The notes below the pieces were generated by a model. It worked only from the letters and a program-made list of their open reading frames with translations. It was not told the origin of the DNA and made no database searches. From positions 544,001 through 608,000 of the forward strand of contig CBDCCI010000001.1 of the NCBI GenBank assembly GCA_965214705.1: a stretch of 64,000 nt of DNA. Direction: 5' to 3'. Positions 262-64,000 of this stretch are shown here, in pieces (within the stretch, counting starts at the first letter, position 1; each line of letters opens with the position of its first letter). A program made the position numbers and the translations under genes. The stretch comes from Alphaproteobacteria bacterium (GTDB lineage Bacteria; Pseudomonadota; Alphaproteobacteria; UBA828).

Positions 262-590
262 CGCATCGTGCACCCCTCGCCTCGCGGCGCGTCTGTGTCG
301 TCGTAACAACCGTAATCACTTCGTAAGCCACCGACATCAAACTCCGGCGTATTAGAGCGTAGGTTTGTCATGACGTCAAGGGGCATCCGTGTCACGTCAA
401 CCTCTTGTTATCATGTGTATATACGCACTCCTGCGTATTACAGCGTACCCCAGCGTAGGCCTGTCGTTGATTTGACAAATGCGAGATATTAAAAAGGAGA
501 GCCTTGAGGTCATGAAAAAGTCGAAACTGACTCGCAGTTTGCTGGCGGCGTGCTCGATCGTCGCCCTCACGGCCGTCATGTACGGCTGCT
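262..590 (+). repeat. 5' conserved flank, copy 1 (integrase-proximal region, promoter, RBS, signal peptide)
   Basis: Near-identical to ~61743-62070 from about 310 onward. Weaker similarity extends back to the CAT that is the integrase start codon in copy 2. Confidence 0.95.
302..457. promoter_or_regulatory. Helically phased short direct repeats (candidate integrase arm-type or regulator sites)
   Basis: GCGTA at 347, 357 and at 433, 443, 453 (10-bp spacing), inverted TACGC at 422, CGTAA at 302/311/322, and palindrome GTCATGAC at 367-374. Confidence 0.45.
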
Positions 591-2146
591 CGAGCTCCGG
601 GGAGGACCGGGCCAAAGCGGATCGGGACGAACTGCAAGCGCAGATCGATGCCCTGCAAGAAGCATTCGGGGACGAGGACATAACGCCGGAAGCCATCATG
701 GCGCTCATTGCCGAGAGGGATGATGCCACGGCCGATGTGACCCGCCTCACTGACGAGTTGGCCATGGCCAAAGCCGAAGTCACCCGCCTCACTGGCGAGT
801 TGGCCAAGACCACGGGCGAGAGGGACGGCCTCCAGACCATGTTGGACGTGGCCAAAGGCGAAGTCACCCGCCTCGAAGGTGAGTTGGCTGCCGCGAACGA
901 CCGTGCCGACACCGCGGAGGAAGAGCTCGCCAAGATCGAGAAGGAGGCGGAAGACCTTATGGCAGCCGCGGCACTCGCGGATCGGATTGCCAGAGGTGGG
1001 GCGATTGAGACGGCGATCTCAACCAACAGGCTTGGGGATTATGCGACTTCCACTGCCAGGACCATCGACGCGCTCCCCGATAGCAGCGGTGTTGACGGAT
1101 TGTCGGTGGAGCGCGACGTGGCCGGCACGATAACGGTCGACGTGAACGGAGATGACGACGACGACTACGATGGCGGCGAGACCACGGCCGGTGACGACGA
1201 CTGGAACAGTGTCAGGATGACGAGGGAAGACGCTGGCGATGAGTCCACTCACACCCTAGTAATCTATACGGACATCGAGGAGCCAGCGGACAAGCCGTTC
1301 ACGGATCTATATGACCGGGCTGCTCGCGATGACATCCTCAATGATGCGGATCGGGTCAAGCTGGCTCAGGCCGCGGACTTCCCCTCGGGGGCAAGCCAGT
1401 CGGTGACGTACGGCGGCGACACCGGCAACCCGGAGTCGTTCGCCGGCACCTTCGCCGGTGTGTCTGGTACGTATGAGTGCACTAGCGGCACGACTTGCAC
1501 GGTGACCACCGACGCCGACGGCGACTTGGTTATGGCGGCGAACTGGAGGTTCACGCCCGACTCCAATTTGGCCACGATCAAGGATCCGGATGTCGCTTAC
1601 GCGTACTTCGGCTGGTGGATGAACGAGCCGAAGGAGAGCGACGATCCGCACACTGTCGAGGTCTTCGCGGCCGGCACGGACGCCCATGTGGCTGCTGTCG
1701 CCGACACCATTGAGGGCACCGCGACCTATTCGGGTCCGGCGGCCGGCATCTATCAGACGCAGACTTTCACCGCCGGTGCGCAGACGGAGGCCGCTGTTGG
1801 TGATTTCACGGCGACTGCCAGTCTCGTGGCGAAGTTCGGCGATGAAGCCGCGACCGGAACCATCGACGGGACGATCACGGACTTCACGCTGGGCGATGGA
1901 ACATCCGCTGCTTGGAAGGTGATGTTGGAAGATACCGGCATAAACGGGGACGGCACCTTCAGCGGTACGAGTGAAGTTGACTTCGGCGGCGGCCCCACCG
2001 AGTCGGATGTCGGGTCGTGGGGAGGCTCGTTCTACGATGCTGGCGCGGACCCCGCCGAGGATCAGCCAGGCACGGTCGCGGGCATGTTCGATGCGGTAAC
2101 GGACACTGCCAGCCTGATCGGCGCATTCGGTGCGACGAAGCAGTAG
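512..2146 (+). CDS. Surface lipoprotein with coiled-coil stalk and C-terminal TbpB-like beta-barrel (Slam/T11SS cargo)
   Basis: AGGAGA RBS, signal peptide MKKSKLTRSLLAACSIVALTAVMYG-C (lipobox), heptad repeats VTRLTDELA/VTRLTGELA/VTRLEGELA, GTATYSGPAAG and terminal LIGAFGATKQ motifs. Lies directly upstream of a Slam gene. Confidence 0.85.
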   Translation: MKKSKLTRSLLAACSIVALTAVMYGCSSSGEDRAKADRDELQAQIDALQEAFGDEDITPEAIMALIAERDDATADVTRLTDELAMAKAEVTRLTGELAKTTGERDGLQTMLDVAKGEVTRLEGELAAANDRADTAEEELAKIEKEAEDLMAAAALADRIARGGAIETAISTNRLGDYATSTARTIDALPDSSGVDGLSVERDVAGTITVDVNGDDDDDYDGGETTAGDDDWNSVRMTREDAGDESTHTLVIYTDIEEPADKPFTDLYDRAARDDILNDADRVKLAQAADFPSGASQSVTYGGDTGNPESFAGTFAGVSGTYECTSGTTCTVTTDADGDLVMAANWRFTPDSNLATIKDPDVAYAYFGWWMNEPKESDDPHTVEVFAAGTDAHVAAVADTIEGTATYSGPAAGIYQTQTFTAGAQTEAAVGDFTATASLVAKFGDEAATGTIDGTITDFTLGDGTSAAWKVMLEDTGINGDGTFSGTSEVDFGGGPTESDVGSWGGSFYDAGADPAEDQPGTVAGMFDAVTDTASLIGAFGATKQ

Positions 2147-2157
2147 CCGGATTGGCG

Positions 2158-2245
2158 GGATCGGGGTCGCCTCGTAAGACCCCGATCCTTTAGGTCCGGA
2201 CTTCCGGAAGAGGGTGGCGGGATGTGCCACCCTCTTCTTCTTTCT
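2158..2245 (+). terminator. Double hairpin / intrinsic terminator between lipoprotein and slam
   Basis: Stems GGATCGGGGTC..GACCCCGATCC (2158-2188) and GAAGAGGGTGGC..GCCACCCTCTTC (2207-2237) followed by a pyrimidine tract. Identical in copy 2. Confidence 0.75.
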
Positions 2246-2691
2246 CATTCTCTCTCTGTTGAGTTCCGTCCGAGGCCTGCTGCGATGATGTTTGCCCCGC
2301 TTTGCCGTGCCCTCGCGTTTGCCGCTTGCCTGTTGCTCGCCCTCCCGGCCTGGGGCGCCACGGAGCAGGCGGCAGGTGAGTTCTCTGCACAGTCCGCCCC
2401 CGCGCTGCCGGGCTTGGCGTCGGCGCAAGCGCTGGTCGATGAAGGCCGCTTCGGGGAGGCGTTGACCATCCTGAATGCGCTGGCACAGGACTATCCCGAC
2501 CATCCCCGGCGCACCGATGTCCTCTTCCTGCTGGGCCTGGCGGCGACCCAGGCATCGCTGAACCCCGATCTCCCGGAGGGGCGGCGGGAGCTTCTGCTGA
2601 GCCTCGCCATCGCGTCCTTCCGCGTCATCCTGATCGATCGGCCCGCGCTCGTGCGGGTGCGTCTGGAGCTGGCCCGCGCCTTCTTCCTCAA

Positions 2692-4851
2692 CCCAAGTTG
2701 GCACTTTTCCGCTGCCTGTGTTCCCTATTGGTTTGATTCAACGCGATATTTTTCTCGGTCGATTCCAACATGGCCCCACATTTTGTGAGATTCTGTCAGC
2801 TCATCAGACGGGTCCTCGTGCGGTGGATGGCGGGGTCCACGCCCGCCGCCGAGGAGATTGCGGCAACCTCGGCGGCCGGGCGCGTGTCCTGGCGGTTGAC
2901 GATCAAGGTGCCGTCGGTCTGGCGCAGGCGCGTGGTGATCCGCACCCAGGTCCGCATGCTCTCGCGGATCGACGCCCAGCACTTGTGGATGCCGCGCGCG
3001 GCCAGCCGGGTACGGATCAGATGCACGGCGTGGTAGGCCAGCACGGCGATCAGCAGGTGGGCCGCGATGCGCCGGTCGAGCTGGTGCCAGATCGGGCGAA
3101 GGCCGAGCTCGGATTTCAGGCTCCGGAATGTCGCCTCGATATCCGTGATCCGCCAGTACGTCCGCAGGACCGTCTCGATGTCCCAGTCGACGTGGCTGGT
3201 GCGCAGCACATAGGCACCGGCGCCCTCATCGGCCTCGTCGTATCGCGGCCTGCGCTTGAAGCGCACGGCGGTGGCATTGGGGCCGGTTTTCGCCCTCTCG
3301 ACCGTGATCTCGTAGTGCCTGGCGACGGCGGAGAAGCGCTGCTTGAGGCGGCCTATGCTCTCCAGCACCTTGTCGTAGCGCTTGAGGCGGCCCTTGACCG
3401 CAAGGCCGCCGTGGAGCCTTTCCAGCGCCGCCTCGAAGCGGTTCCGCCTCAGGCCGATGATCGCGTTCTCGGCCTTCTTCTTGCCCTCGCTGACGACGTA
3501 GAGCCGCGCCTCGCCGTCCTCGCTGGCAAGCCGCCAGGCCCGCACCTCGTGGCGCGCGCTGGTGATCAGCAGGGCCTCGGGTCCGCCCTCGGGCGGCGCA
3601 GGCCTGGCACCGCGGCTGACCGCGATCCAGTCGTAGCCCTGCTCGCCCAGCCACGCGATGTTTTTCTCGGTGGCGATGCCCGCGTCCATGACCACCGTGG
3701 GCTTCGGCGCCGTGCCGCCGCACACCGCCTCGAGCCGCGCCAGCGCCTCGTGCAGCGTGCCCGGCTCGCTCACGTTGCCCGGCAGGATCTCGCAACTGCG
3801 CGGGAAGCCCGCGCCGTCGAGCGCCAGCGCCAGCGTGATGAGGGGACAGTCGTCGCGCTTCTGCTTGGAGCGCCCGAACCTGGGAAGCTCGCCGCCCGTG
3901 TGGCCGTGGTAGTGGACGTTGGTGAGATCGTAGAAGGCGATCGTCTCGGGCAGGTCGAGCAGTGCGCGCTCACGGTTGAACAGCTCCCGCTGGATGGCGG
4001 CGCGGTGGCGCCAGAGCAGGTCGCCGATGCGGTAGAGCGTCTTGCGCCGCAGCGCCTTGCGGTCGCCCTCCAGGCCCAGGAGCTCGGCGGCCGCGCTGTC
4101 GTGGCGGAGCCAGCGGCTGGTATCACGCTCGCTGGCGGGATGGACCATCCTGGCGACGATCAGCGCGCTGGCGATGCGCCCGTCGCGGCCCTTGATGTCG
4201 AGGCCGTGGAGGATTTCGGCGAAGCCGAGGGCGTCGAGGGCCTTGAGGCACAGGCGCTCGCAGCCGACCGTGCGCGGGTTCTCGTGCTCCAGGGTATCGA
4301 GGTCGACGGTGGCGATCTCGGGCTTGCGCGCCTCTTCCTGCATCGCCTCGACGCGGAACCCCCTGGCCCTGAGCTTGGCGACGATGTCCTCGGCTGCGGC
4401 CCGCACATCCGCCTCGCCCTCGAACAGCGGCGGCTTGCCGTGAAGCAGCGCCTCGGCGAGTTCGGTGACGGCCTTCCACTTCTCGCGCGGCACCGGATAG
4501 TCGGTGCCGAGATTGAGCAGCGTCCTGTGGCGCACCTTGTCGCCGACGCGCTGGGCGAGCACGAGGCGATGGCTTCGGACCGGCTGGCCGGCCTTGTCGG
4601 TGTGTGTCCTGGTTGCCTTGATGTACATGGCGGCGCCGTTTCTGCGATGCCTGTTTCGCATACACGGCGTTCGCGGCATCTGGCAAGAGGGATATCGACT
4701 CAACTCCAAAGTCCTGGCCCCACAATTGGCTTCCAGGACCACGAATGGCAAATGTGGGTCTCAGGTGTCCTCCAACCCCAACATCTAGTGGTTCAGCGCC
4801 GCAAAACTAGCTCGAACAGGCTCGGCTGGTCGGAAAAAGTGCCAACTTGGG
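2692..4851 (-). mobile_element. IS1634-family insertion sequence
   Basis: Terminal IRs CCCAAGTTGGCACTTTT(T)CCG. TCAA is duplicated at 2688-2691 and 4852-4855. Confidence 0.9.
2796..4628 (-). CDS. tnp: IS1634-family DDE transposase
   Basis: N-terminus MYIKAT...RVGDKVRHRTLLNLG, plus YDLTN, VVMDAG and IEATFRSLKSELGLRPIWH motifs. Confidence 0.9.
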   Translation of the reverse strand: MYIKATRTHTDKAGQPVRSHRLVLAQRVGDKVRHRTLLNLGTDYPVPREKWKAVTELAEALLHGKPPLFEGEADVRAAAEDIVAKLRARGFRVEAMQEEARKPEIATVDLDTLEHENPRTVGCERLCLKALDALGFAEILHGLDIKGRDGRIASALIVARMVHPASERDTSRWLRHDSAAAELLGLEGDRKALRRKTLYRIGDLLWRHRAAIQRELFNRERALLDLPETIAFYDLTNVHYHGHTGGELPRFGRSKQKRDDCPLITLALALDGAGFPRSCEILPGNVSEPGTLHEALARLEAVCGGTAPKPTVVMDAGIATEKNIAWLGEQGYDWIAVSRGARPAPPEGGPEALLITSARHEVRAWRLASEDGEARLYVVSEGKKKAENAIIGLRRNRFEAALERLHGGLAVKGRLKRYDKVLESIGRLKQRFSAVARHYEITVERAKTGPNATAVRFKRRPRYDEADEGAGAYVLRTSHVDWDIETVLRTYWRITDIEATFRSLKSELGLRPIWHQLDRRIAAHLLIAVLAYHAVHLIRTRLAARGIHKCWASIRESMRTWVRITTRLRQTDGTLIVNRQDTRPAAEVAAISSAAGVDPAIHRTRTRLMS

Positions 4852-5905
4852 TCAAGGGCGAGGACAGCCTGTCGCAGCGCCACTTCGAGCGGGTGCTGGC
4901 CGGCGACCCGCCTGAGGCGGTGGTCGCCAACGTCCGACATTTCCTGAACCGGATCAGGGCACGGCGGCGCTGGAGCTTCAGCCTTGGCGCCGCCATCGCG
5001 CCCGACACCAATATCGGCGGCAGCTCGGAGGAGCGCACCATCTATATCTTCGGTTTGCCGTTCGAGCGCGACATCGAGGAGCTGACCACGTCGGGCATAG
5101 GTCTCTCGGTGTGGGGCGGCGCCGAGCACCAGTATCCGCTGAGCGAGCGGGTGCGGCTGCGCAGCGGCGCCAATCTCTCGCGGCGGGAGCACGAGGGATC
5201 GCGGTTCGACGAGGTTTTCGCGTCGGTCCATCTCGGGCCTCGCCTGCTGCTGGGCGAGCGCACGGAGGCGAGCGTGCTGGCCACCGCGAGCCAGCGCTGG
5301 GCCGGCACGGTGAAGGATCGACACGCCCTCGGCGGGCGCGTCGAGGTGGGGCACCGGGTCAACCGTGCGGTGACGGTGAACGGGCGGGTCGCCTGGGAGG
5401 ACCGGCACCATCGAACGGGGACGAGCCGGGACGGGCCGGCTCTGGATGTGTCGCTGGGCGGCGCCTGGGTGATCGCGCCCACGGTTCGGGCGGATGTGTC
5501 TGCGGGGTATGGGCGTGAGCGCCCGGAGGTGATGCGCGATCGCCATGAGAGGTATCGCGTTGGCGCGGGCGTTTCGGTGCTCCTGCCGCTGGGCTTCACG
5601 GTGAGCGGCGGCGGGGACTATCGCTGGACGGACTTCGAGGCGGGGTGGCACCCGTACGTGCCGGACAACGGGGCGCGCGAGGACCGGACGTGGAGCGCGC
5701 GGGCGTCGGTGTACAACCGTGGGATCACCCTCTACGGCTTCAGCCCGGCGGTGGGGGTGGTTCACGAGGTCCGCAAGACCAACGCACAGCTCTACGACTA
5801 CGAGCGCACGCGGGGCGAGCTTCGCTTCGTGCGCCAGTTCTAGTCACCGGGCGGCCCGAAGCGGCGGCGTTGGCGGGGCGGCGGCGCCATGAGCACACTG
5901 CATCG

Positions 5906-7012
5906 ATGGGCCTGACGGGTCTCGGGGCACGCCTTGGGTTGTCGGGCGGTTCCCCTGCGAGGCGGACACGAGGCCGGACCGGCCGGTGTCTCGGCTTGGC
6001 GTGCGCGCTGCTCCTCTGCGTATGCCTGCCGGGCGCGGCCGCCTCCGAAGAGGTGGGCTTTCGCAGCATGGCGACGCCGCTGCGCATGGTGAACCTGAAC
6101 CCGTTTCACCTCGCGTACGGTGTGCCGGGGTCCCTCGGCGCCCGCGTGATGCCGGCGGGCTCGTCGGAGCTGATCGCATCGCTGGACATGGCGTCGCATC
6201 TGCGCGCGGCCAGTTCCGGAGCGGAGCGGGTGCTGATGGACGGGGAGACCTACCGGCGGGCGCTCACGCTGCGGCATGGTCTGGGAGACGGCTGGGAGTA
6301 TCTGCTCGACGTCCCCGTCGTTGCGCACAGCGGCGGCGTTTTCGACGGCTTCATCGAGAGCTGGCATGACGCCTTCGGCCTGCCCCAGGGCGCGCGGGAC
6401 CGTGCGCCGCGCGATCGGCTGGCGCTCTTCTACGCCGATGACGAGGGACCCCGTGTGGACATCGATCGCAGTGTCTTCTCCCTCGGGGATGTGAGCCTCG
6501 GGGTCGGCTACGCCTTGTCGCCCGCGCCGCTGTCGAATGACGGCATGGCGGTCCGGGCGGTTGTGAAGCTTCCGAGCGGCGACGAGGACGCATTGGCCGG
6601 TTCGGGAGGCTTTTCGGCCTCGGTCTGGGCCGAGACCTCGGGAGCATTGTCGGGCTCGGCCGGCTCCCGCGCCTGGCTATATGCCGCGACGCTGGGGGCT
6701 CTCGTGGGCGAGGCCCCGGAGAACCTTTCGGACCTCGGCGGCCGCTTCATCGCCTTCGGGCGCTTCGGCGTGACCTGGCGGGCGCTCAGGGATCTGCGGC
6801 TGACGGTGCAGGTCGACGCCCATTCGTCGCCCTACGGCGCCTCCGCCCTGTCTCCGCTCTCGGACGCGGCCGTCATGGTGGGGCTGGGAGGGACGCTGAG
6901 ACTCAGCGAGCGCGTGGAGCTCGACATCGCCGTCACGGAGGACGACGGCACTTGGCACGCCGCACCCGACATTGGCCTGCACGTCGCCATGCGGTGGCGG
7001 CTGCATGATTGA
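5906..7012 (+). CDS. DUF3187-family outer-membrane protein
   Basis: PLRMVNLNPF, DGETYR, HSGGVFDGFIESWHDAFGLPQG motifs and a barrel-like C-terminus. Start codon is uncertain. Confidence 0.75.
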   Translation: MGLTGLGARLGLSGGSPARRTRGRTGRCLGLACALLLCVCLPGAAASEEVGFRSMATPLRMVNLNPFHLAYGVPGSLGARVMPAGSSELIASLDMASHLRAASSGAERVLMDGETYRRALTLRHGLGDGWEYLLDVPVVAHSGGVFDGFIESWHDAFGLPQGARDRAPRDRLALFYADDEGPRVDIDRSVFSLGDVSLGVGYALSPAPLSNDGMAVRAVVKLPSGDEDALAGSGGFSASVWAETSGALSGSAGSRAWLYAATLGALVGEAPENLSDLGGRFIAFGRFGVTWRALRDLRLTVQVDAHSSPYGASALSPLSDAAVMVGLGGTLRLSERVELDIAVTEDDGTWHAAPDIGLHVAMRWRLHD

Positions 7013-7272
7013 ACCGGGAGGACCGTCATCGCGAGAGCGCACGCGCCATGCATGTTGCCCTCGCCCGGCTGCCCTTGCCCGCAGCACTCAGGCCGAACCC
7101 GCCGCGTTCACGCGGTCGGTTGCTGAATGTGGCCCCGATACCATCAAGGTGTGCTCGCTCCCGAGTGCGGCCCGTCGTTCCAGGCGCAGCCCCGCTTGGC
7201 GTCCTCCATATGCGTCTTCTTGTCGGATGGGGCGCCGCCTCTTTCACCATAGCAGCGGGAAGGAAATCCAGC

Positions 7273-7857
7273 ATGACCAGATGGATCTCTGCGCTTGCGG
7301 CGCTGTTGTGCGGCCTCGGTCTTGTCCCGGTCGCTCACGCAGAGGACCGCCACGCCGACCGCATCCATGTCGGGATCGGCTATCGGCACGTCTTCATCGA
7401 CGGCGAGACAATGACTGCCGATGGCGACACTGTGACCATACCGGACTTCGAGCACAGGGTGATCGTTCTGCGGGCCGGCTACGATCTCCGGCCCTTCTTC
7501 GCGATTGAGGCCGAGGTCATGACGAGTGTCGCGGAGACGGAGTTGGCAGCCGGCACGCCGGCCGGCGACATCCCGTTCAGCACGCGCATCCTTCATGGTC
7601 TCGGCGTCTTCGGGAAGGTCCGGCATGAGATAGCGGAAGGCGTTTCAATGCACGCGCGGGTTGGTGGGGCGGTCATGAAGACGGAAGCGTCGGCCTTCGG
7701 GGTCTCGACGTCAGACACAGGCGAGGGCCTGGCCTACGGGGCAGGCGGTGAGGTCCGTCTGAGCGAGTGGGCGAGCCTGCGGGTGGACTGGACTCAATAC
7801 CGCGAGGACGGCGAGACGGCCGATGCAGTGTCGCTCGCCGCCGTCACCCGCTTCTGA
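7273..7857 (+). CDS. Small outer-membrane beta-barrel (OmpA-TM/porin family)
   Basis: Signal peptide ending VAHA, LRAGYD, GLAYGAGGE, LRVDWTQY and a terminal Phe. Confidence 0.8.
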   Translation: MTRWISALAALLCGLGLVPVAHAEDRHADRIHVGIGYRHVFIDGETMTADGDTVTIPDFEHRVIVLRAGYDLRPFFAIEAEVMTSVAETELAAGTPAGDIPFSTRILHGLGVFGKVRHEIAEGVSMHARVGGAVMKTEASAFGVSTSDTGEGLAYGAGGEVRLSEWASLRVDWTQYREDGETADAVSLAAVTRF

Positions 7858-12976: not shown

Positions 12977-15900
12977 ATGGTCGCCACGGTCGTCGAGCTT
13001 CGTTCGTCCGCCATGGCGGTGACCTACTACGAGCGCGACGGCTACTACGCAAAGAACGATCCCGAGCACCGCCAGGCCAGCTTCTGGTACGGGGACGCGG
13101 CGAAGGCGCTGGGGCTCAAGGCCCATGTGCGCCCCTCGCGCTTCGAATCGGTGCTGTCGGGATTCGTGCCGGGGATGGAGCTCCGTCTCGGCCGAATGCG
13201 CGAGGGGGAGCACGATCACCGGCCCGGCTGGGACATAACCCTGTCGGCTCCGAAGTCGGTATCGCTGGAGGCGCTGGTGATGGGCGACCGCCGGGTGATC
13301 CGGGCTCACGACGAGGCGGTGCGGGCGACGCTCGGCTTCGTGGAGTCGGATCTCCTGCAGACCCGGGGCTGGGACCCGGCGACGCGGCGCCGTCCCCGGG
13401 TGAAGGCGGAGGGCATGGTGGTGGCGGGGTTCCGGCACCTCGCGAGCCGCGACCAGGACCCGCAGCTGCACACCCACTGCGTGCTGGCCAACATGACGCG
13501 CAATGCGTCGGGGGAATGGCGGAGCGTGGAGCCGACCAGGATCCGCCGCAGCGAGAAGCTGATCGGGGCGTACTACCGGAACGAGCTCGCGCAGCGTCTC
13601 CAGGCTTTGGGTATGGCCGTCTCGCCGAGCCTGGTGGGACGGGTACCGGGGTTCGAGCTTGCGGGCTACGACCGCTCCTTCCTGGACGCGTTCTCGGGCA
13701 GGCGCCGCGAGATTCTTGCGTACCTGGAGCGCCAGGACCTGTCCTACACGGCGAAGCACACGCAGATGGCGGCGCTGCACACGCGCCGGCGCAAGGAGGA
13801 CAAGGGCCTCGCGGACCTGGTGCCGGAATGGCGCGAACGGGCGCAGGCACTGAGTCTGGCCCGGGAGAAGACGGCTCTCACGCCGTCCCGGCCGCTGGAC
13901 CCGGTGACCGGCGAGCGGGTTGGATTGCCGCACGTGCTACCTCCCGACCTGCCGGCCAACGAGATCCGCAGCCTGAAGCGCGCGCCGGCGCTGCCGGCGC
14001 TGCCGAGGTTGGCCCGCGACGACGTTGCCGCGTCGGCGGGGGTGAATCCCACGCAGTCTCGCTCACCGGCGCCGGCGGAGCTGTCGCAGGAGCCTGAGCG
14101 CGGCGTCCTGGAGGCGGTGGCGCGGGCGGTGTCGCACGTTGCGGAGAGGCGCACCGCGATCCCGGAGGCGGAGATCAGGGCGGTGGCGCTGGGCCATGCG
14201 CCGGGGCGCTACACGCTGGCCGAGGTCGACGGGGCGATCGCACGGCTGGTGTCCGGCGGCGAGCTGATCGAGGCGGAACGCCGGGGCATGGACCGGGCCT
14301 TCGTCACCGACCGGGCGGTGAAGGCCGAACGCCAGGTGCTGGCGTCGATGCAGGCGGGACGGGACAAGGGAACGGCGCTGGCCGGTACAGATGCCGTCGA
14401 GGCGCGGCTCGGGGCGTCGCGTCTCACGCAGGGCCAGAGGGAGGCGGTCCGCACGGTGCTGCTGTCGAGCGATCTCACGGTCGGCGTGCAGGGCCATGCG
14501 GGCAGCGGCAAGACCACCATGCTGAGGGAGGTGAAGGCGCTTCTCGGAGGCAGGACGATACAGGGCCTCGCGCCCTCGGCCGCCGCCGCCCGGGTTCTCG
14601 CCAGGGAGGCAGACATCCCCTCGCGGACGCTGCAGCACTTCCTGACCCGCTTCAACGATCTTTCCGACCCGGAGCGACTGGCGCGGGGCCGGGAGGAGTA
14701 CGGGGGCGCGGTGCTGGCGGTGGACGAGGCCTCGATGATCGACACCGTGCGCATGGAGGCGCTGCTGCGCATCGCGCGCGATCTGAATGTGGCACGCGTG
14801 GCGCTGGTGGGCGGCACCGCGCAGCTGAAGGCGGTGGATGCGGGCCAGCCCTTCCGCCTGCTGCAGAAGGCGGGCATGGCGACGGCGACCATGGACGAGG
14901 TGCTGCGCCAGCGCGACCCGGCGCTGCGCGCGACGGTAGGCCGCGTCAGGGAGGGGGAGCCGGACGCGGCGATCGCGGCGCTGGGCAACCGGGTGCGCGA
15001 GGCGCCCCGCGAGGAGCTCGGCATCGAGGCGGGCCGGCGCTGGCTCGCGCTGGCGCCGGAGCAGCGGGCGGACACCCTGATCCTGGCCCCCACGCACGCG
15101 ATCCGCCGGCAGGCAAACGAGGCGGTGCGCGAGGGGCTCGCGGAGGAAGGCGTCTTGAAGGGCCGCACGCTCGCCGTCGACCGCCTGGTAAACCGGCGGC
15201 TCACCCGCGCGCTGGCTTCCGACATCCGGAGCTACGAGCCCGGCGACACTATAGTGTTCCACCGCGACGTCTTCGGCTGCCGCGCGAACGACGTCTGCAC
15301 CGTCACGGGCCACGACGGCGGCAGGGTCGTGCTGGCCCATGCCGACGGCGAGCGCCGGTTCCGGCCCTCGGGCAATGCGGCGCGCTATCTGGGCCTCTAC
15401 GACACCGAGCGGATCGAGCTGCGCGCCGGCGACCTGATCCGCTGGACGCGCAACCGCAAGGCCCCGCCCGGCCGCGGCAGGCATCCCCGGGGGCCGGACC
15501 TGGTCAACGGCGGCGAGGCGGAGATCGTGGAGATCGGCTACAGGCGGGTGCGCTTCCGCGAGGGCGGCCGGGAGTTCGGTCTTGCGCTTACCGACCCGCA
15601 GCTGCGCCATCTGGATCATGCCTACTGTTCCACCGTGCATTCTGCGCAGGGCCGGACGGCGCGGGCGGCGATCGCGGTGCTGGACGCGGGCGCCGGGGCC
15701 GACCGCGAGCTGTTCCATGTCGAGCTCAGCCGGGTCTCGGAAGAGTTCCTGCTGCTGACCGACGACCGCGACGCGCTGATCGAGAGCATGGCATACGACC
15801 GGAGCGAGGACGGGGCGCTGGAGGCCTTGGGGATCGACCTTTCCGAGACCCCCGCGGTGGACCCCGAGGAGTTCGCGGCGCTGGCGGCGGACTGGCGGGC

Positions 15901-24712: not shown

Positions 24713-24715
24713 GGG

Positions 24716-49385: not shown

Positions 49386-49629
49386 GGTCTTGTCTCCTGT
49401 CGATTCGAGTTGATGACGAAGGTTGAGGAGCGGGCTGGAGTCTCTTCTCGACCCCGCCCTGCTCACCTTCTCCAAGCTCCACACCTCCTCTCGTCTGCTG
49501 CCTGCTCCGAGGCCCGCCGGGTTCACGAGGCCTCGCGGACCGCACGGCCGGTGACTGCCGTGGCGCTGGTTCGGGATAGGGGACGTCAAGAGCGGGCTCA
49601 CCTTCGGAACGCCCACGGCGGGTCCGCAC

Positions 49630-50442: not shown

Positions 50443-50457
50443 GACCGGCGCTCTCGG

Positions 50458-52518: not shown

Positions 52519-53588
52519 GCCGGATCGTCCGCCCCCGCGGGACGGTGCCGGGAGCTGCGCCGCTTCGACGGAAATTGGCGCGCCTGACCCGAGCCGTCCG
52601 GCCCGCACCAAGGCGCCGTTCTCCCTCCGCGTCCATTCCCTGTGGGCGATCACAATTGACCATGACGAGTGTCGGACGTCCGCCGGCTTGCGATCGAAGG
52701 CACTGAAGGGCGGCCCCGCCAGGGACCGCCACCGCCGACGTGATTCGGCCCGACGGCCGTGTCGAGCATCGCCGCCCGGCGGGCTGGTTTGATTCCGGAA
52801 TCGGGGGTGCCGTCGGCGAGCTCGCGCGGCGTTTCGGCCCGAGTCGCTACGGGTCGCTTCGCGGAGCTACGCTGGAGTTGGAATTCACTCGCTTCCGCAG
52901 TGATTACGGCGGGGGATTCCTGGGGCTGTCAGAGAGGGCTGAATCGAGAGATAAGAGACTGTATCGATTGAGAGAACCGAGGGTGTAGCTTCTGTCCTAC
53001 GCCCAGGCTCTCCTCTGCTTGAAGAGGCCTCAGCCCGAGGCCTCGCTCGTTTCAACTTGTCCGACCGCCAACGTACCTGACGACTCGGGTCGTGTCCATG
53101 GCCGATGAATCCCACCACACTAGCGCCTGCTTGTCCACATCAGAGTTGCGGCCAGACAGGCCATCGCGGCGACGAACCAAGGAACGATCCCTGACCATCC
53201 TGGGACTTCCGCCCCCTCTGCGCTGCAGCCTCCCCGCACATCCTTGCGGCATCCTCCGTGCCGCACAACGTGCCAAGGCCGAATTCTCGCCACATTTCTG
53301 CGACCATTGCAAGCCCGAAATTCGACCGGCCCAGGGCAAATTTGTCCAAGCGGCTGGTAGGCAGTTGAGTTCTGGCCACGGGTTGTGCGGATCGGCTTTG
53401 TTGCGGGGTTTGCGGCGGGGTCTGGCCGAGCATCCGGTTCGGTCAGACGGTTCTGGCATTACCGTGTGGGCGGTGCGGGCGGTGCCGTCGCGATTTGGCG
53501 GTGCCCCGACATGATGGATCGCGCCACCGGCGTGGTCGGGAGCGAGGGCAGGTACGATCTTTGCGCCCGGCTTGCCGGGCGCCGGGGT

Positions 53589-56215: not shown

Positions 56216-57264
56216 ATGCGCCACGACGAGATCTATAAGTCCATCTTCTCCCGAAGGATCTCCGTCGAGCATCTGCTCCGCTTCATCGCCGGCACGATCG
56301 ACGACGGCCCCGAGTGGCTCGCGGCCTTCGACCCGCAGACCCTGGAGCCGGTGCCGACCGAGCGCATCGCATCGACGACACCCTGCACCGCCACCTGAGC
56401 GATCTGGTCTGGCGCGTGCGCCTGCGGGACGGCGGCGAAGAGGACTGGGCCTATCTGTTCGTGCTGATCGAGTTCCAGTCTGCGGTGGACCACCTGATGG
56501 CGCTGCGGGTCAACACCTACGTCAATCTTCTGTACCGGGGCCTCTGGGCGGGTCGCCGCTTCGGCGCCTCGGACCGTCTGCCGCCTGTGCTGCCGGTGGT
56601 TCTGTACAACGGCGCCTCACCGTGGACGGCGGCGGCGAGTGTCGAGGCGCTGGTTGCGCCGGAGGGCCGGCCCCCCGGCGCCATTGCCCCCGTGCCTGTC
56701 TATGCCGGCTCGGGCTACGTGACGCTTGACGTGGGCCGGGTCGGGGGCGGAGACTTTCCGCCGGACGATGTCGTTTCCCTGGTGATCGGCATCGAGCGGA
56801 TGTCGTCGCTTGAGGAGGGTTACGCGACGCTGCTTGAGGCGTTTTCGGCACTTCGGAGTTCCGAGCACCGGGACTTGCGGCGTATATTCCACGAGTGGTT
56901 CAGTCTGCTTGTCGGGCAGGGCGCCGGAGGCGCCGTGATCGAGGGGTTTGAGGAGATGGAGCGACTGGAGGAAGCGGGCGAGCTGCGGACGCCGGTCCAG
57001 GACCGGGTCCGCGCATGGCGGGAGGCCGAACGCGAGCAGGGCCGCGCCGAAGGCGTCGAGCAGGGCCGCGCCGAAGGCGTCGAGCAGGAGCGGGCGCTTC
57101 TTCGGCGCCAGACCGAACGCAAATTCGGTGCGGACGCCGCCGGCCGTGCGGTACCCCTGCTGGCCGGGATCGGGGAGCCCGAGCGGCTGGCGGACGTCGG
57201 CGACTGGATCATCGACTGCGCGACGGGCGACGAGCTGATCGCGCGGCTGGCGGACGCGGCTTAG
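56216..57264 (+). pseudogene. rpn: Rpn/YhgA-like PD-(D/E)XK protein, frameshifted
   Basis: MRHDEIYKSIFS...PVPTERI, then SDLVWRV, LIEFQS and LPPVLPVVLYNG in another frame. A 5-bp duplication CGCATCGCAT lies at 56363-56372. Confidence 0.85.
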
Positions 57265-57435: not shown

Positions 57436-59283
57436 TCAGTTCGTGCCCATGCCGAAGCCGAGGTCGCGAACGGCCTTGCGGAACGCCGCCTCTGCCCTCG
57501 TCTGCACCACCAGATGCTTCTTCCCCGCGCGCAGGCAGAGCTTCGCCGCGCGCTCGTCGCCGGCAATCCTGGCGGCGACGTCCTCGTCGGCGCATTCGAT
57601 CAACAGCGCCGTACCGCGCGCCTTGAGCGCGCCGGCGGCGCGCTCGACGTTGCGCAGGAAGCCCTCGACCCTCTCGGGCAGAGGCTGATCGTCCCGTGCC
57701 GCAAGGAATGCGCGCAAGCCGTCGGCATCGTGTCCGCCCTCGAAGGCCGCCAGGGTCCGCTCGCGCGCCAGGCGCCACACGCCCTCCGCCTCGACCTCCG
57801 CAAACGTCTCCAGCATGAGCCTCTCGTCCGCCGACAACGCCTCGCCGGCGCACACCCGAAGGTCGGGGAAGACGGTCAGCGAGGTGCGCGCCGCCGCCGT
57901 GCCCGGCTCGTACGTATCGGCGAGCCCCAGGCAGTAGGCGCCGAGCGCATTCAGCCTGAAGTATTGCAGCCCGTCGTAGCGGCTGAGCCAGGCCAGCTCG
58001 CCGCTCCCCGACAGGTGCGTGAAATCCAGCCGTGCCTCCTCGGGGTGGATGTAGGCGACATCGATCAGACCCAGCGTCGCGGCATACTCGAACAGCACGC
58101 ACAGAAGGTAGCGGCCCTGCAGGATGTTCCAGCCGTGAAAGCCGGCATAGCCCAGGCTGTCGTGGTGCAGATCGAACAGGTAGAGCTTCCACGGATCGCG
58201 CGTGATGCCGAACTCGAACGACGACGCCTGCATGAAGCGCGAGAACTCGTCGAAGCGCACCCAGCGGTCCAATGGACAGTGCTTCAGCGCCTCGGCGATC
58301 ACCGGGCGGCGCGTCGACGCCGCGATCATCGCGCGCCGGCCCTTGCCGCGGTTCTGGCCCTTGATGGCCTCGATGCGGCTGAACTCGTCGAGCAGGTCGT
58401 TCTTGATCCAGCGTTGCCAAAGATTGCGCAGCGTCTCCGCTGCGGGCGCCCCCTGGGCGGCGTGGCCCTTCTTCGTCAGCGCCAGCTTCGAGCCCCTGAG
58501 CTCGGCCAGCTTGCCCGCCTGCACCAGCAACGGCCAGGCAAACCCCCTGACGGGGCCGACCGCTTGTTCCCCGCGTCCCCGCTTCTCCGCGAGGTCGAAG
58601 AAGTCGCCCCCGTCCAGTTCCCCGGCAATGGCCGCCGCCGAAGCCGCCGAGGCCCGCCGCGTCTTCGCGCTCACCGCGACCCGCCCGAGATCGATCTGGC
58701 GCAGCACCGAGACCAGGTCTCTCTGTGCCGCACGCTCCATGTCGCGCCGAACCAGCTCGACCCGCTCCAACCCCGGCGCCTCCCCCTCGGGCACGTGGCC
58801 GCGCCGCCGCCGGTCGGCCGCCTCCGGCAGCGCCTCCTCGGCGGCGAGCGCCGCCTCGGGCGGCGCGGGCACGAACGCGCGCAGACGCTCCGCCAGATCC
58901 GGCGGGACGAACGGCGTAGCGTCCGCGTAGCTGCCGCGGGAATGGAGGAAGAGGCGCAGGGGCAATGCGTCGGGAGAACCGCGCCGGCCGAAGCCCAGGG
59001 GCAGCGCGCCGTACTTGGCCTCGAACCGCGCGGCCTTGAAGCCCTCCGCGTCGTGCAGCGCCTCTGCCACCGCCAGTCGTTGAAGCTCGTCGAGATCGTC
59101 CCACAGACGGCGGAGCGAGGCCCCGCTGAGACGGCTCTCGATGGCCGCCACCATGTCGGCCTTGCGCGTGGGCTGCGGCTTCGCCGCCGAGAGCCAGTTC
59201 ACCATGGTCGTGAGGTCGCTGTTGCTCAGCGCGGCAAGCGCCTTCGCCAGGGTAGGGAGCCAGTCATCGGCGATACGCACCAT
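57436..59283 (-). CDS. Helicase-associated (XPB/Ssl2 N-terminal-like) domain protein
   Basis: GAGGAG RBS. C-terminal LETFAE...GVWRL.RE.T..A..G..AD.L..FL......PLP..V pattern. No Walker motifs seen. Confidence 0.6.
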   Translation of the reverse strand: MVRIADDWLPTLAKALAALSNSDLTTMVNWLSAAKPQPTRKADMVAAIESRLSGASLRRLWDDLDELQRLAVAEALHDAEGFKAARFEAKYGALPLGFGRRGSPDALPLRLFLHSRGSYADATPFVPPDLAERLRAFVPAPPEAALAAEEALPEAADRRRRGHVPEGEAPGLERVELVRRDMERAAQRDLVSVLRQIDLGRVAVSAKTRRASAASAAAIAGELDGGDFFDLAEKRGRGEQAVGPVRGFAWPLLVQAGKLAELRGSKLALTKKGHAAQGAPAAETLRNLWQRWIKNDLLDEFSRIEAIKGQNRGKGRRAMIAASTRRPVIAEALKHCPLDRWVRFDEFSRFMQASSFEFGITRDPWKLYLFDLHHDSLGYAGFHGWNILQGRYLLCVLFEYAATLGLIDVAYIHPEEARLDFTHLSGSGELAWLSRYDGLQYFRLNALGAYCLGLADTYEPGTAAARTSLTVFPDLRVCAGEALSADERLMLETFAEVEAEGVWRLARERTLAAFEGGHDADGLRAFLAARDDQPLPERVEGFLRNVERAAGALKARGTALLIECADEDVAARIAGDERAAKLCLRAGKKHLVVQTRAEAAFRKAVRDLGFGMGTN

Positions 59284-59336
59284 CGGTCGCTCCTCTCGTC
59301 GATAACGATGCCGTCCCGATGCCCGGCGCGCACCCC

Positions 59337-60506: not shown

Positions 60507-60526
60507 ATCGCGGTTCCCCCCGACCC

Positions 60527-61747
60527 TTACGCCATCTGTGCTGGCGGCAATCCAGGCGCTCCGTTGAGGACAGCGGCCCCGGTGCGGACGACGTCGTCCT
60601 CGATGCTGCCCCCCACCCGCGCCGCCGCGATCTTCTCCGCGTCCCGCGAGAGGTGCGCGTAGCGCGCCGTGCTGCCGATGTCCGTGTGGCCGAGAAGGCG
60701 CCCGATCATCGGTAGAGCCAGACCGAGGGCCAAGGCTCGCGACGCAAAGCTGTGACGCAGGTCGTGGATCCGCACGTCCTCTACTTCGGCACGCTCCCGC
60801 GCCCGGTGCCAGGGGTTGGTCAGCTCCGACAAGTGGCGATCCGGCCTGCGTGCCGGAAATACCCATGGGCTCCGACGGACCCGCTTGATCCCCGCCAGCA
60901 CCTGTGACGCCTCCGGCGTCAGAGGCACCATGCGCGCCCCCGTCTTCGCATCGCGCAGGCGAAGCTCCCCGGACTTGCGGTCGACGTCGCTCCAGCGAAG
61001 CGTCAGCACCTCCCCGAGACGGCATCCGGTCAGCATGATCAGCCGCAGCGCCGCCGCAGCCCGCGCCTGCACCGGGCCCTCGGCCTCCAGCTCGCGCAGC
61101 GCGAGGCCCAGCCGGCGATACTCGTCCTCGGTTAGGAAGCGCTCTCTCCGCCCCTCCTTGTAGCGCAGAACGAACCGGCACGGGTTGCCGCCGGGCGGCG
61201 CCATTCCCCACGCCTCCGACAACGAGAACATCTTGGACAAAACCATCAGCGCCCGGTTCGCGGCACGGGGCGTCTCACGCATCCCGTAGTGCAGAGCCGC
61301 CACCTCCGCCCGGCCCACGGAGGCCACGGGCTTCGCACCCAATGCCGGCAGGATGTGGTTCCTCAGCGAGCCGGCGTAGATCCTCTGCGTGTGCGCGTTG
61401 CAGTGCACCTTGACATGGCCCTCCATGTAGCGCTCGGCCAGGTCGGCGACGGTGAGCGTGCGCTCGAGCGGCCTCGCCACGGGATCCTCGCCCTGCTTGA
61501 TGCGGGCGATGGCGGCTGCGGCCTTCTTGCGCGCTTCCTCTGCGGTGGTCTTGCCGTGCCGGCCGAGGGAGACCCGCCTGATGCCGGCAGGCCCCCGGCT
61601 CTGGGCCACGTATATCTTGGTGCCCGAGGGGTAGACGCGCACCCCGAAGCCGGGGAGTTCCCGGTCCCAGAAGACGGCCTCCTTGCCCTCGACGGAGAGC
61701 CCGTCGACGGTGCGCTTGGAGAGCGTGAGTTCGCCCCTCTTCGGCAT
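60527..61747 (-). CDS. int: Tyrosine integrase with arm-binding domain (backbone integrase 1)
   Basis: FWDRELPGFGVRVYP, TGCRLGE, AKTG, HDLRHSFAS and LLGH...ARY. Confidence 0.93.
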   Translation of the reverse strand: MPKRGELTLSKRTVDGLSVEGKEAVFWDRELPGFGVRVYPSGTKIYVAQSRGPAGIRRVSLGRHGKTTAEEARKKAAAAIARIKQGEDPVARPLERTLTVADLAERYMEGHVKVHCNAHTQRIYAGSLRNHILPALGAKPVASVGRAEVAALHYGMRETPRAANRALMVLSKMFSLSEAWGMAPPGGNPCRFVLRYKEGRRERFLTEDEYRRLGLALRELEAEGPVQARAAAALRLIMLTGCRLGEVLTLRWSDVDRKSGELRLRDAKTGARMVPLTPEASQVLAGIKRVRRSPWVFPARRPDRHLSELTNPWHRARERAEVEDVRIHDLRHSFASRALALGLALPMIGRLLGHTDIGSTARYAHLSRDAEKIAAARVGGSIEDDVVRTGAAVLNGAPGLPPAQMA

Positions 61748-62070
61748 CGAGAATCCCTCGAGTCGCGGCGTGTCTGAGCCGCCGAAATTGCCGTAATCAC
61801 TTCGTAAAACACCGACATCCAACTCCGGCGTATTAGAGCGTAGGTTTGTCATGACGTCAAGGGGCATCCGTGTCACGTCAACCTGTTGTTATCATGTGTA
61901 TATACGCACTCCTGCGTATTACAGCGTACCCCAGCGTAGGCCTGTCGTTGATTTGACAAATGCGAGATATTAAAAAGGAGAGCCTCAAGTCATGAAGCAG
62001 GGGAAGCTGACTCGCAGTTTGCTGGCGGCGTGCTCGACCGTCGCGCTCGCGGCCGTCCTGTACGGCTGCG
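61743..62070 (+). repeat. 5' conserved flank, copy 2
   Basis: Near-identical to ~262-590. Confidence 0.95.
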
Positions 62071-63518
62071 TACACAGTGACGATGACCCGACTACCACCC
62101 CGCCAGATCCAGCAACCGTGGATCTTTCGGCAGTGCCCGATCACAACCTCATGGCAGGCGAGCACGTGATCGAACCGGGCGAAAGCTTGGTCGAGGGGAA
62201 TGTCGAATTCTCTTGCCCGGCGGACGGTGAGGCCTGCGTAGTCACGGTGGCGGTGGACGCCGACGGCAAGATCTCGGCCAACTCTACCGGCGGCGCGGCG
62301 TCCGTGCTGTACAGCATGGCGTACCTCGATGATAGAATGGCCGGTATAAAGATGGCCAGTGACAGAGCGCTCGGCATCGCGTCCGCGATCACTTCTGCGA
62401 CCTCTACTCCACCGGCGATCGACGTCGAAGTCACCGCGACCCGCGCGACGGGCGAGGAGGCGAGCGTCGAGGTTGCGGTGACGGGCGACGACGCCGGCAC
62501 CGGCGACTTCGAGGCGGCGGATGCCCCTGCCGCCATCGCAGGGTGGCACGGCTCCAGTTGGATGCGCGGCGAGGCTACCGAGCATGTGACCGTTTACACT
62601 GATATCGACGAGCCTACACCCACGGCGTTTACCATGATCCATCTCCTGGACCGCAGCACTGACGACGATGCGAGTGACAACGAGGCCTTGAGCATCACCA
62701 ATGCTAACGTGAACATGGTTAGCGGTGTGGCTGAGTTCCCCTCCGCAGCGCTTCAGACGGGCGCACCCTTCGACGAAGACGACGAGTTCACGGGCATGTT
62801 CGATGGCGCGCCGGGCACTTTTACCTGTGCTGCCGCTGATTGCACCCTCTCTACAGATGGCGATGGCAAGCTGGCCAGCGTGGCCGGCATTTGGTACTTC
62901 ACGCCTGACGAGGGGGCTAAGGTTCCCGTGGCCGACGACGACTACCTGCATTTCGGCTGGTGGCTGAACTCGCCAGACGAGGCCAACGACGATGGTGAAT
63001 ACGAGTATATGCTCGACACCTTCTACGGCGGCTCGACGGCTCCCTTCACGGGGGATGAGGTTGCCGTAGTTGAGGGCAAGGCCAAGTACTCGGGCGCCGC
63101 GGCCGGGTTGTACGCGACGCGGACCTTCGAGGACGGCGATGCCACCGGCGCCAACGATGGTACGTTCACCGCAGATGTCGCACTGACCGCGGCTTTTGGC
63201 GGCGACGATGTCGCCATCAACGACCAATTCAAGATCAGCGGGTCCGTGACGAACTTCATGGAGGGCGGCGAGAGTCTCGGCTGGTCGGTGGCGCTGCAGG
63301 AGGTCGACATCAGTGGAACGGGCGGCGGTGACGCCTACCTAATTGAAGGCGACGCGTCGGCGTTTTCCGGCACGGGCGCTCCGGGGACGGGTTCGTGGGA
63401 AGCGATGTTCTACGGTCCCGTTGACGGGGTCGCGGCTCCCACCGGCGTCGCCGGTCAGTTCGGCGCCAATCTCGGCGACACGGACCTCGCCGGTGCATTC
63501 GGTGCTACCAAGGACTAA
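61992..63518 (+). CDS. Surface lipoprotein with C-terminal TbpB-like barrel (variant 2)
   Basis: MKQGKLTRSLLAACSTVALAAVLYG-C, YTDIDEP, YLHFGWWLN, GKAKYSGAAAG and terminal LAGAFGATKD. Confidence 0.85.
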   Translation: MKQGKLTRSLLAACSTVALAAVLYGCVHSDDDPTTTPPDPATVDLSAVPDHNLMAGEHVIEPGESLVEGNVEFSCPADGEACVVTVAVDADGKISANSTGGAASVLYSMAYLDDRMAGIKMASDRALGIASAITSATSTPPAIDVEVTATRATGEEASVEVAVTGDDAGTGDFEAADAPAAIAGWHGSSWMRGEATEHVTVYTDIDEPTPTAFTMIHLLDRSTDDDASDNEALSITNANVNMVSGVAEFPSAALQTGAPFDEDDEFTGMFDGAPGTFTCAAADCTLSTDGDGKLASVAGIWYFTPDEGAKVPVADDDYLHFGWWLNSPDEANDDGEYEYMLDTFYGGSTAPFTGDEVAVVEGKAKYSGAAAGLYATRTFEDGDATGANDGTFTADVALTAAFGGDDVAINDQFKISGSVTNFMEGGESLGWSVALQEVDISGTGGGDAYLIEGDASAFSGTGAPGTGSWEAMFYGPVDGVAAPTGVAGQFGANLGDTDLAGAFGATKD

Positions 63519-63529
63519 CCCGATTGACG

Positions 63530-63617
63530 GGATCGGGGTCGCCTCGTAAGACCCCGATCCTTTAGGTCCGGACTTCCGGAAGAGGGTGGCGGGATGTGCC
63601 ACCCTCTTCTTCTTTCT
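63530..63617 (+). terminator. Double hairpin / terminator, copy 2
   Basis: Identical to 2158-2245. Confidence 0.75.
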
Positions 63618-63653
63618 CATTCTCTCTCTGTTGAGTTCCGTCCGAGGTCTGCG

Positions 63654-64000
63654 ATGACGTTTGCCCCGCTTTGCCGTGCCCTCGCGTTTGCCGCTTGCCT
63701 GTTGCTCGCCCTCCCGGCCTGGGGCGCCACGGAGGAGGCCGCAGGTGAACTCTCTGCACAGTCCGCCCCCGCGCTGCCGGGCTTGGCGTCGGCGCAAGCG
63801 CTGGTCGATGAAGGCCGCTTCGGGGAGGCGTTGGCCATCCTGAATGCGCTGGCACAGGACTATCCCGACCATCCCCGGCGCACCGATGTCCTCTTCCTGC
63901 TGGGCCTGGCGGCGACCCAGGCGTCGCTGAACCCCGATCTCCCGGAGGGGCGGCGGGAGCTTCTGCTGAGCCTCGCCATCGCGTCCTTCCGCGTCATCCT
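63654..64000 (+). CDS. slam: Slam, second copy (runs off the window end)
   Basis: Near-identical at DNA level to 2285-2631. Confidence 0.85.
   Translation, partial: MTFAPLCRALAFAACLLLALPAWGATEEAAGELSAQSAPALPGLASAQALVDEGRFGEALAILNALAQDYPDHPRRTDVLFLLGLAATQASLNPDLPEGRRELLLSLAIASFRVI

Follow-up and report, generated by a model that had tools for sequence, protein, structure and literature searches.

How do two genes some 61.5 kb apart come to lie between nearly the same upstream and downstream DNA when much of what they encode differs? The question is raised by a 64,000-nucleotide stretch of DNA from an Alphaproteobacteria bacterium (GenBank assembly GCA_965214705.1, contig CBDCCI010000001.1, positions 544,001 to 608,000; the window), which carries two predicted surface lipoprotein genes, copy 1 (512-2146) and copy 2 (61992-63518), each followed by a slam gene; repeats in the sequence confirm the common flanks. 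A preliminary description of this DNA proposed a fixed expression and export socket into which different surface proteins are recombined. As described below, the recombination point lies at the ribosome-binding site (RBS), and we favour, with some reservation, the explanation that the integrase pair beside copy 2 is part of an integrative element that targets the RBS of Slam-exported lipoprotein genes, including those of the element's own cargo.

Throughout, G000 is the assembly holding the window (7.92 Mb in 3 contigs, 67% GC), G001-G020 are the other genomes compared (21 of one genus in all), and C, L and X denote a contig, a fetched locus and a sequencing run; the window is G000:C2:544001-608000, and its features are collected in Table 1. 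Insertion sequences (ISs) are abundant in G000, which also contains 98 matches to the integrase int1, most of them paired. Because the 21 genomes are kin, counts are given without P values.

Where identity between the copies stops

Near-identity upstream was earlier said to run through the lipobox Cys. The identity profile of the two copies, computed with ISs left out, does not agree, and a 5' break at the lipobox was rejected for this pair: int2 (100%), int1 (99.6%), the leader in front of the gene (97.7%) and a 10-mer core, AGGAGAGCCT (100%), are shared, with a single mismatch in the 165 bases of the leader stretch 61821-61985, and identity then stops at the core, 85 bp before the Cys. The first mismatch falls at 61986, the base after the core, and the spacer and signal peptide are 85.9% identical (12 differing columns of 85 up to the Cys codon). 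Across the bodies the alignment stays at 40-50%, which is alignment noise, and identity returns in the hairpins (96.9%) and in slam (99.2%); the shared slam flank of the preliminary description is real, but the copy 1 gene is interrupted by an IS. In both copies the core overlaps the Shine-Dalgarno sequence, that is, the RBS. A mobile family with a sharp recombination point beside an integrase pair is indeed present, provided that the point is moved from the lipobox to the RBS core. Upstream of copy 1 the DNA is a patchwork of an IS end, 84 bp identical to a paralogue at C2:478960 and about 150 bp of copy-2-type leader.

The bodies had been described as sharing only scattered motifs, which understates their likeness: the last 250 amino acids are 40% identical, copy 2 aligns with a copy-1-type head at 36.9% over 336 amino acids, and the copy 1 head, a handle plus barrel, is also present in two other copies on C2. 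As to the contrast drawn between the two proteins, copy 2 does have the CPADGEAC domain, but residues 34-150 of copy 1, described as a coiled-coil stalk, match only coiled-coil models, and these below their cut-offs. BLASTP of both copies gave the signal-peptide match alone among the matches listed.

Nor do the two copies stand alone. Among 30 matches to the core in G000, six are at gene starts, before the family signal peptide, and four precede a conserved arm without a gene (one of them in the window, at 53014 on the minus strand). Two kinds of leader precede the core: the integrase-side leader is head-to-head with int1, and the hairpin leader, placed downstream of int2, has two GAGGCCTC units at its end. 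Genes at C2:439700 and C2:478960 have a common leader, the latter and copy 1 have a common gene start, and copy 1 and copy 2 have a common leader, so that leaders and genes are mixed at the core. One hairpin leader likewise stands before a gene (C2:469889) and before an arm (C2:448065), and the 99.7% match between them ends at the core. Matches to int1 of at least 77% occur in G000 only at six family sites. Both int1 and int2 keep all of the catalytic residues (R, K, H-x-x-R, H and Y) and an arm-binding domain, and the two genes are 20 bp apart with no gene between them.

The same junctions recur across the genus. The core followed by ATG and signal peptide is found in 15 of the 21 genomes (a reversed control gave 0), and the pattern search found it in none of 28 other genomes of the order; 3 of the 53 matches (G014 C178, G006 C40 and G012 C15) fail a longer pattern and were left out of the family. 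The core is identical at all 46 gene sites and 11 gene-less sites with enough flank, and the adjoining columns vary. Many distinct bodies, as expected earlier, stand behind it: when the 46 genes were translated and 5 broken ones dropped, 41 intact genes remained, with a median body identity of 23% over 820 pairs. Fetched loci contain 59 sites in 20 leader clusters, 36 after integrase-side leaders (all with a gene) and 23 after hairpin leaders downstream of int2 (12 with a gene, 11 gene-less); every gene has its own leader. In 13 pairs with leaders at least 85% alike, head identity is at background (median 32% versus 30.8%), and leader and gene are therefore unlinked. Two family genes lack the core, and the upstream DNA fetched for them (up to 8 kb) has no integrase pair.

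An arm search across the genus gave 22 matches, 20 of which are arms: 17 follow hairpin leaders, one follows a hairpin-bearing leader of another integrase subfamily, one is at a secondary site sharing AGAGCCT and one is truncated. An arm after a cognate integrase-side leader was found in 0 of these 20. All 11 arms first examined contain a pair of motifs, one CCGTAATCA-type and one CTCCAGCGTA-type, which at 32-bp spacing is found again only in leaders whose integrases belong to the subfamily 71-100% like int1; 4 of the 11 adjoin integrase pairs of other subfamilies. The arm and the cognate junction of integrase-side leader and gene are present together in 9 genomes, both absent in 10, and single in 2 (G013, and G010, which is 62% complete).

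A candidate integrative element and its attachment sites

How might one leader come to stand before different genes, and one arm behind hairpin leaders? According to the explanation that we favour, the target site, attB, would consist of a hairpin leader, the core and a gene, and the site on the element, attP, of an integrase-side leader, the core and the gene-less arm, this last combination being confined to a circle. Integration would leave a junction at each end: attL, where the core joins the hairpin leader to the arm, and attR, where it joins the integrase-side leader to the gene. Copies 1 and 2 of the window would both be attR-type junctions, with one leader before different genes; junctions of the attB, attL and attR types imply that the element brings a leader to a gene and that bodies are not slotted in. 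Each element would also carry its own lipoprotein-slam operon behind a hairpin leader and hence its own attB, so that siblings could insert into one another and form nested arrays of alternating orientation. The bodies would diversify apart from integration, by ordinary recombination between stalk, head and slam. We infer that int1 and int2 cut at the core and that the circle exists. A tRNA target was rejected, none being present in the 25 loci scanned.

Several observations fit this proposal. The reconstructed attP has arm-type repeats on both sides, the motif pair being common to the arms and their cognate leaders, with a putative role in binding. For G004, the nested model predicted a further plus-strand gene-less site to the left of the array, and one was found at C1:1532213; the three attL and three attR of that genome pair without crossing, and G020 C7 nests too. 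The attL and attR sites are in direct orientation in G004 and G020 C7, and not so, as assembled, in G000, G005 and G012.

Integration may also affect expression. In folding predictions, hairpin leaders of the type at 53015-53330 pair with the Shine-Dalgarno sequence in gene-bearing sites, and the median predicted unpaired value of AGGAG is 0.01 behind hairpin leaders (n=12), 0.00 behind leaders of other subfamilies (n=15) and 0.42 behind cognate integrase-side leaders (n=19). By removing the hairpin predicted to block the Shine-Dalgarno sequence, integration may raise translation. A tentative extension, which we regard as possible but doubtful, is a surface switch at the level of the RBS: hairpin-leader genes would be translationally shut, integration of a sibling would open them and add a silent gene, and excision would shut them again, with nested arrays amounting to a growing library of surface proteins. 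No sigma-70 consensus promoter was found on the gene strand of the copy 2 leader or of the hairpin leader, a search of the leaders of 6 loci for known RNA families gave one weak match far below threshold, and the runs listed as containing the copy 2 region include no RNA dataset.

A number of findings weigh against the proposed element. No attP junction appears in any genome or contig, and among the contig rows listed there is no joint at the core, contigs being apt to drop rare forms; a pattern scan of JGI metagenomes for the attP junction returned 2 unrelated matches only, and IMG/VR gave 0 matches to the arm motif and 1, unrelated, to core plus signal peptide. No empty chromosomal site was found. 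The sites of G000 as assembled do not nest cleanly, with 3 plus-strand attR against 1 plus-strand attL on C2, unless the tandem unit is a haplotype duplication, in which case G000 would still be short of one attL; the ends in G005 lie 1.28 Mb apart and inverted, and those in G012 are on different contigs. A second integrase subfamily has its own junction, CGAGGCCTCTTCA followed by TTA, at 19 sites in 12 of the 21 genomes, and it occurs after both kinds of leader. Simple integration leaves this unexplained, and for the second subfamily an inversion or a transposon-like route is possible; its CGAGGCCTCTTCA/TTA sites bound whole arrays in G004, G008 and G009. Finally, the genomes of one genus are not independent, and the effect on the RBS is a folding prediction.

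Beside these junctions several related arrangements were seen. At G000:C2:677190-677260 a hairpin leader with about six tandem 12-bp GAGGCCTC units and a core-like variant has no gene behind it and adjoins a degraded integrase pair at 681-684 kb, and on another contig (G000:C1:468561-472480, L008) a further cassette has a lipoprotein gene cut off after about six codons. An integrase pair sits inside int2 of another pair at L100:11160-11790 (G020:C4) and at G000:C3:224589-227923. One IS family with inverted ends of about 200 bp recurs in attachment arms or just upstream of int1 (window 1-262; G000:C2:448261, 475161, 530538 and 540694; arms in G012 and G005), and might block recombination there. 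Two attL-type junctions of G001 (C190 and C155; L166 and L176) have one change inside the core, with the usual core at the gene sites of that genome, which suggests mismatch-tolerant exchange. An unrelated Alphaproteobacteria metagenome-assembled genome (MAG) has the same layout (L080:2113-8709), in which a lipoprotein gene followed by slam stands head-to-head with an integrase pair; the stalk repeat there is similar, the integrases are 30% identical and the core is absent.

Competing explanations

The pairing of copy 1 with copy 2 could be a product of assembly, in which two strain haplotypes of one locus were joined via a 3.6-kb IS and the copy-2-type leader of copy 1 is possibly a consensus mosaic. 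We lean against this but give it real weight. At least 87% of the words of the copy 2 region occur in each of six runs from two studies, and four runs were compared, all as contigs; the contig depths are rough. In three runs the depth of the integrase arm is about 0.9-1.2 times that of the copy 2 body and that of slam 2.5-2.8 times; from the assembly one would expect ratios of 2 and 4. X3 and X5 show at full depth the left-arm alleles that belong to the unit preceding the window (L006 4083-4102), and in X1 both left arms occur, each at roughly half depth. The target duplications of the IS before copy 1 are unlike, and this hybrid character suggests a join between two IS copies here. Protein clustering places copy 1 in a cluster of one and copy 2 in a cluster of three, and copy 1 is known from this assembly alone. 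On the other hand, stalk repeats, IS content and cargo all set copy 1 apart from its near twin, and for that reason we take it to be a real allele; the suspected join is at or before the window start; and one leader with different genes recurs in other genomes. The preliminary description had named a chimeric assembly of two strains as one danger to its claim. For copy 2 the junctions are bridged in two studies, the DNA from signal peptide to hairpin being a single contig in X3 and in X5, which belongs to another study, but copy 1 does not pass this test cleanly, given its depths and target duplications. Probably the copy 1 unit and the unit preceding the window are two alleles that the assembly placed one after the other. 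An assembly product would remove the pair of copies and not the family pattern; the family-level result does not rest on copy 1.

A second alternative is an invertible cassette, in which the segment between inverted cores (hairpin leader, integrases and integrase-side leader) flips and so changes the leader of a gene, as in fim or Mycoplasma vpma. Inverted cores do flank each integrase pair (in the window, 53014 minus and 61976 plus). Moreover, the same gene lies on both sides of one pair in G017 C8, breaks fall at both signal peptides in G014 C89, and the TTA junction of the second subfamily is reciprocal after both leader kinds. A gene on both sides is also expected, however, when an element inserts into a copy of itself. 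For the int1 subfamily the flipped state, integrase-side leader plus arm, occurs at 0 of 20 arms, four arms are non-cognate with the neighbouring integrases, and rare signal-peptide variants match across the nested pairing and not across the cassette (G000, G004). In the light of these findings we consider inversion unlikely. The vpma locus of Mycoplasma agalactiae and the vsp locus of M. bovis (recombinases Xer1 and Mbr) are, as described for them, alike in having variable surface lipoproteins, a conserved 5' untranslated region (UTR) and signal peptide and an adjacent tyrosine recombinase, and vpma recombination falls between -72 and the start codon (PMC2268961). The vpma system as set out there has one promoter and works by inversion (PMC2268961), whereas here each copy has its own leader, there are gene-less arms and the pattern fits integration. 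Among the hallmarks of vpma and vsp, a recombination site in the 5' UTR with a conserved signal peptide is found here; a single promoter for silent genes does not appear to be, and for the int1 subfamily neither are both orientations.

What of the socket of the preliminary description, in which promoter plus signal peptide and terminator plus slam are constant and recombination at the lipobox and the last strand swaps the mature bodies? We judge it quite unlikely in that form. Signal-peptide DNA has a median identity of 91% over the same 820 pairs, against the 23% of the bodies, and rare signal-peptide codons are fixed (ACT 47/47, AGT 41/45 and TTG 44/46, against a background of 3-5%); the closest full-length homologues of copy 2 (39-47%) bear other signal peptides. 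Fixed rare codons and homologues with other signal peptides lead us to think that the signal-peptide stretch of about 100 bp is under constraint at the DNA level and captured bodies in the past. To this extent the idea holds, bodies having once been joined behind the signal peptide, but the 3' flank is not fixed and the junctions point to an element integrating before the gene. A family-wide 3' socket was rejected: the double hairpins differ between most members, and genes more alike in the head tend to be more alike downstream (Spearman 0.52 over 406 non-independent pairs). Where downstream identity reaches 85% or more (15 pairs), the heads are 40-100% identical, and downstream DNA thus generally follows the head; from these comparisons the 3' flank usually appears to travel with the gene. 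The 99% identity of copies 1 and 2 in the 3' flank looks, on the alignments, like local recombination. One outlier seems to favour the socket, the G000 gene at C2:469889 with 98% identity to copy 2 downstream and 40% in the head, and this may reflect homologous recombination in slam that stopped where homology ends. Further points against a socket are that identity between copies 1 and 2 drops at the core, well ahead of the Cys, that gene-less cores are left unexplained, and that the copy 2 locus has one body in the contigs of 3 runs, among the matches listed.

An ordinary paralogue cluster in an island, shaped by purifying selection on RBS, signal peptide and slam, diversifying selection on bodies and gene conversion, with integrases that only move the island, would suit the shuffling of stalk and head within genes (11 and 14 incongruent pairs), the conversion-like patchwork of the copy 1 leader and a genome full of ISs and paired int1 matches, but is very unlikely considering that all 10 core bases are kept at 11 gene-less sites where no RBS is needed, that identity blocks stop exactly at the core and that arm and attR co-occur by genome.

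Cargo, related systems and other features

The cargo was earlier taken to be of the Slam-exported type, and the evidence agrees. Lipobox Cys26 is present in both copies, and across 98 aligned homologues the Cys hardly varies. Copy 2 as modelled with AlphaFold2 (pLDDT 89.2) has a handle domain plus a C-terminal 8-stranded barrel, and the head of copy 1 is homologous to it by sequence. The top structural matches of the model are fHbp (9mrj; Z 14.3, root-mean-square deviation 3.9, 194 residues aligned), the TbpB C-lobe (Z 13.6) and hemophilin (Z 13.3); copy 2 is less than 25% identical to solved structures and has no Pfam TbpB hit. The slam product matches SlipAM (PF04575) above cut-off, and slam lies within 700 bp of 29 of the 41 intact genes. 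Because the fold of copy 2 matches fHbp, TbpB and hemophilin and slam follows, the predicted class of the cargo, a Slam-exported lipoprotein, is a known one. As a survey of the type 11 secretion system (T11SS) describes them, such proteins (TbpB, fHbp, HpuA, hemophilin) have the same lipobox, handle plus C-terminal barrel and slam directly downstream; T11SS loci co-occur with transposases, and the word 'integrase' is absent from the survey's main text (PMC12282271).

Lipoprotein genes that are related to these, but lack the core and have different signal peptides, lie at G000:C3:2751108-2754893 and C1:3239170-3240507; the C3 gene encodes 1261 amino acids, with two heads and repeats of a Cys-pair module. 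In some cases the slam that follows a gene is a distant one, 37-38% like that of copy 2 (G004:C1:1584371 and 1596779, G017:C8, G012:C9:375923), and G004 and G017 have a second, closer slam further on. The named homologues come from one Alphaproteobacteria MAG and one Rhodospirillales MAG.

Which known systems come closest? Integrative elements with lambda-type integrases are described as having rare targets at gene 5' ends, and some target conserved sites of other elements or the att sites of residents; integrative and mobilizable elements, including IME_oriT and those showing site-specific accretion, likewise have arm-binding tyrosine recombinases beside the att site (PMC5704250). The present case departs from those accounts in having two adjacent integrases, a proposed target, the RBS, that belongs to genes of the kind the element itself carries, and self-nesting in alternating orientation with leaders re-paired with surface-protein genes. 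Strand-biased circularizing elements also have two tyrosine recombinases at one end and imperfect inverted motifs, and their copy-out movement would permit insertion into an element's own copy (PMC10214605). As defined there, however, they need intA-tfp-intB plus srap and are reported only from Gammaproteobacteria (PMC10214605), whereas in the window just 20 bp separate int1 from int2, and both encode arm-binding domains; with no gene between int1 and int2 there is no intA-tfp-intB operon. In the Staphylococcus aureus lpl cluster, island-borne lipoprotein paralogues are likewise shuffled via a conserved DNA stretch, but by homologous recombination at a conserved region inside the open reading frame (ORF), with no integrase-linked core in the published description of the cluster (PMC2568036).

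Our literature search, with subscription journals and supplements outside its scope, found analogues only; none of them is an element whose integration site is the RBS of a surface-lipoprotein gene in its own cargo. SXT/R391 elements, which insert at the 5' end of prfC, supply a new promoter and 5' end to the gene entered; they use one housekeeping target and one integrase and are not known to self-nest through cargo. What would be new here is the putative att site, at the RBS of genes like those the element carries; the class of cargo is known. Slam-exported lipoproteins are known mainly as host-binding proteins of pathogens, and here hypervariable members are kept on elements across a genus of uncultured Alphaproteobacteria-like genomes, seemingly with the gene's RBS as attachment site. 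If this is true, mobile DNA spreads surface proteins and decides which of them are translated, by a route unlike inversion switches or gene conversion. The 10-bp core and two arms also provide a defined substrate for an uncharacterised two-integrase family.

Table 1. Features of the window, in window coordinates
Feature	Position	Strand
IS of 3569 bp, right end, lying 4 bp before the start codon of the integrase gene; target duplications hybrid	1..262	
Integrase-side leader of copy 1 (P arm); 263-346 of C2:478960 type, remainder of copy-2 type; motif pair at ~310 and 342	263..494	+
Core AGGAGAGCCT = RBS; attR-type junction, copy 1	495..504	+
Surface lipoprotein copy 1, 544 aa: signal peptide to Cys26, coiled-coil stalk, handle-plus-barrel head	512..2146	+
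Double hairpin, second terminator-like (terminator scan run on the copy 2 equivalent)	2156..2240	+
slam of copy 1, split by IS at about 2692-4851	2285..5843	+
TrwC/MobF relaxase	12977..17773	+
Gene-less arm (P'); motif pair at ~52909 and 52877	52850..53004	-
Core AGGAGAGCCT without a gene behind; attL-type junction	53005..53014	-
Hairpin leader (B arm) ending in two GAGGCCTC units	53015..53330	-
Rpn/YhgA-like gene; in several relatives between hairpin leader and integrases	56314..57264	+
ORF with Helicase_C_3 domain, downstream of int2; 5' limit approximate	57436..59336	-
int2, arm-binding tyrosine recombinase, intact catalytic residues	59337..60506	-
int1, arm-binding tyrosine recombinase: R243, K268, H328, R331, H354, Y363	60527..61747	-
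Integrase-side leader of copy 2 (P arm); motif pair at ~61791 and 61823	61748..61975	+
Core AGGAGAGCCT = RBS; attR-type junction, copy 2	61976..61985	+
Surface lipoprotein copy 2, 508 aa; TbpB-lobe/fHbp-like predicted fold, residues ~136-508	61992..63518	+
Double hairpin, terminator-like stem 63578-63610	63528..63610	+
Start of intact slam, copy 2; runs past window end	63654..64000	+

In the window, as in G004, G008 and G013, the relaxase gene stands between slam and arm; that of the window has three copies of about 90% identity elsewhere in the genome and may be part of a separate inserted element. DUF3187 and outer-membrane-protein beta-barrel genes (5645-7857) follow slam in copy 1 and in its near twin. 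Tandem arm-type integrase pairs that are 34-41% like int1 and unlinked to lipoprotein genes lie at 23525-25843 and, in L006, beyond slam (C2:610355-612592). Other cargo ORFs, at 30675-31826, 47038-48597, 51404-51814, 42991-44175 and 48936-50504, encode two reverse transcriptases (one carrying a group II maturase domain), an antitoxin resembling HicB, a primase (Toprim/DUF7146) and an SSB domain.

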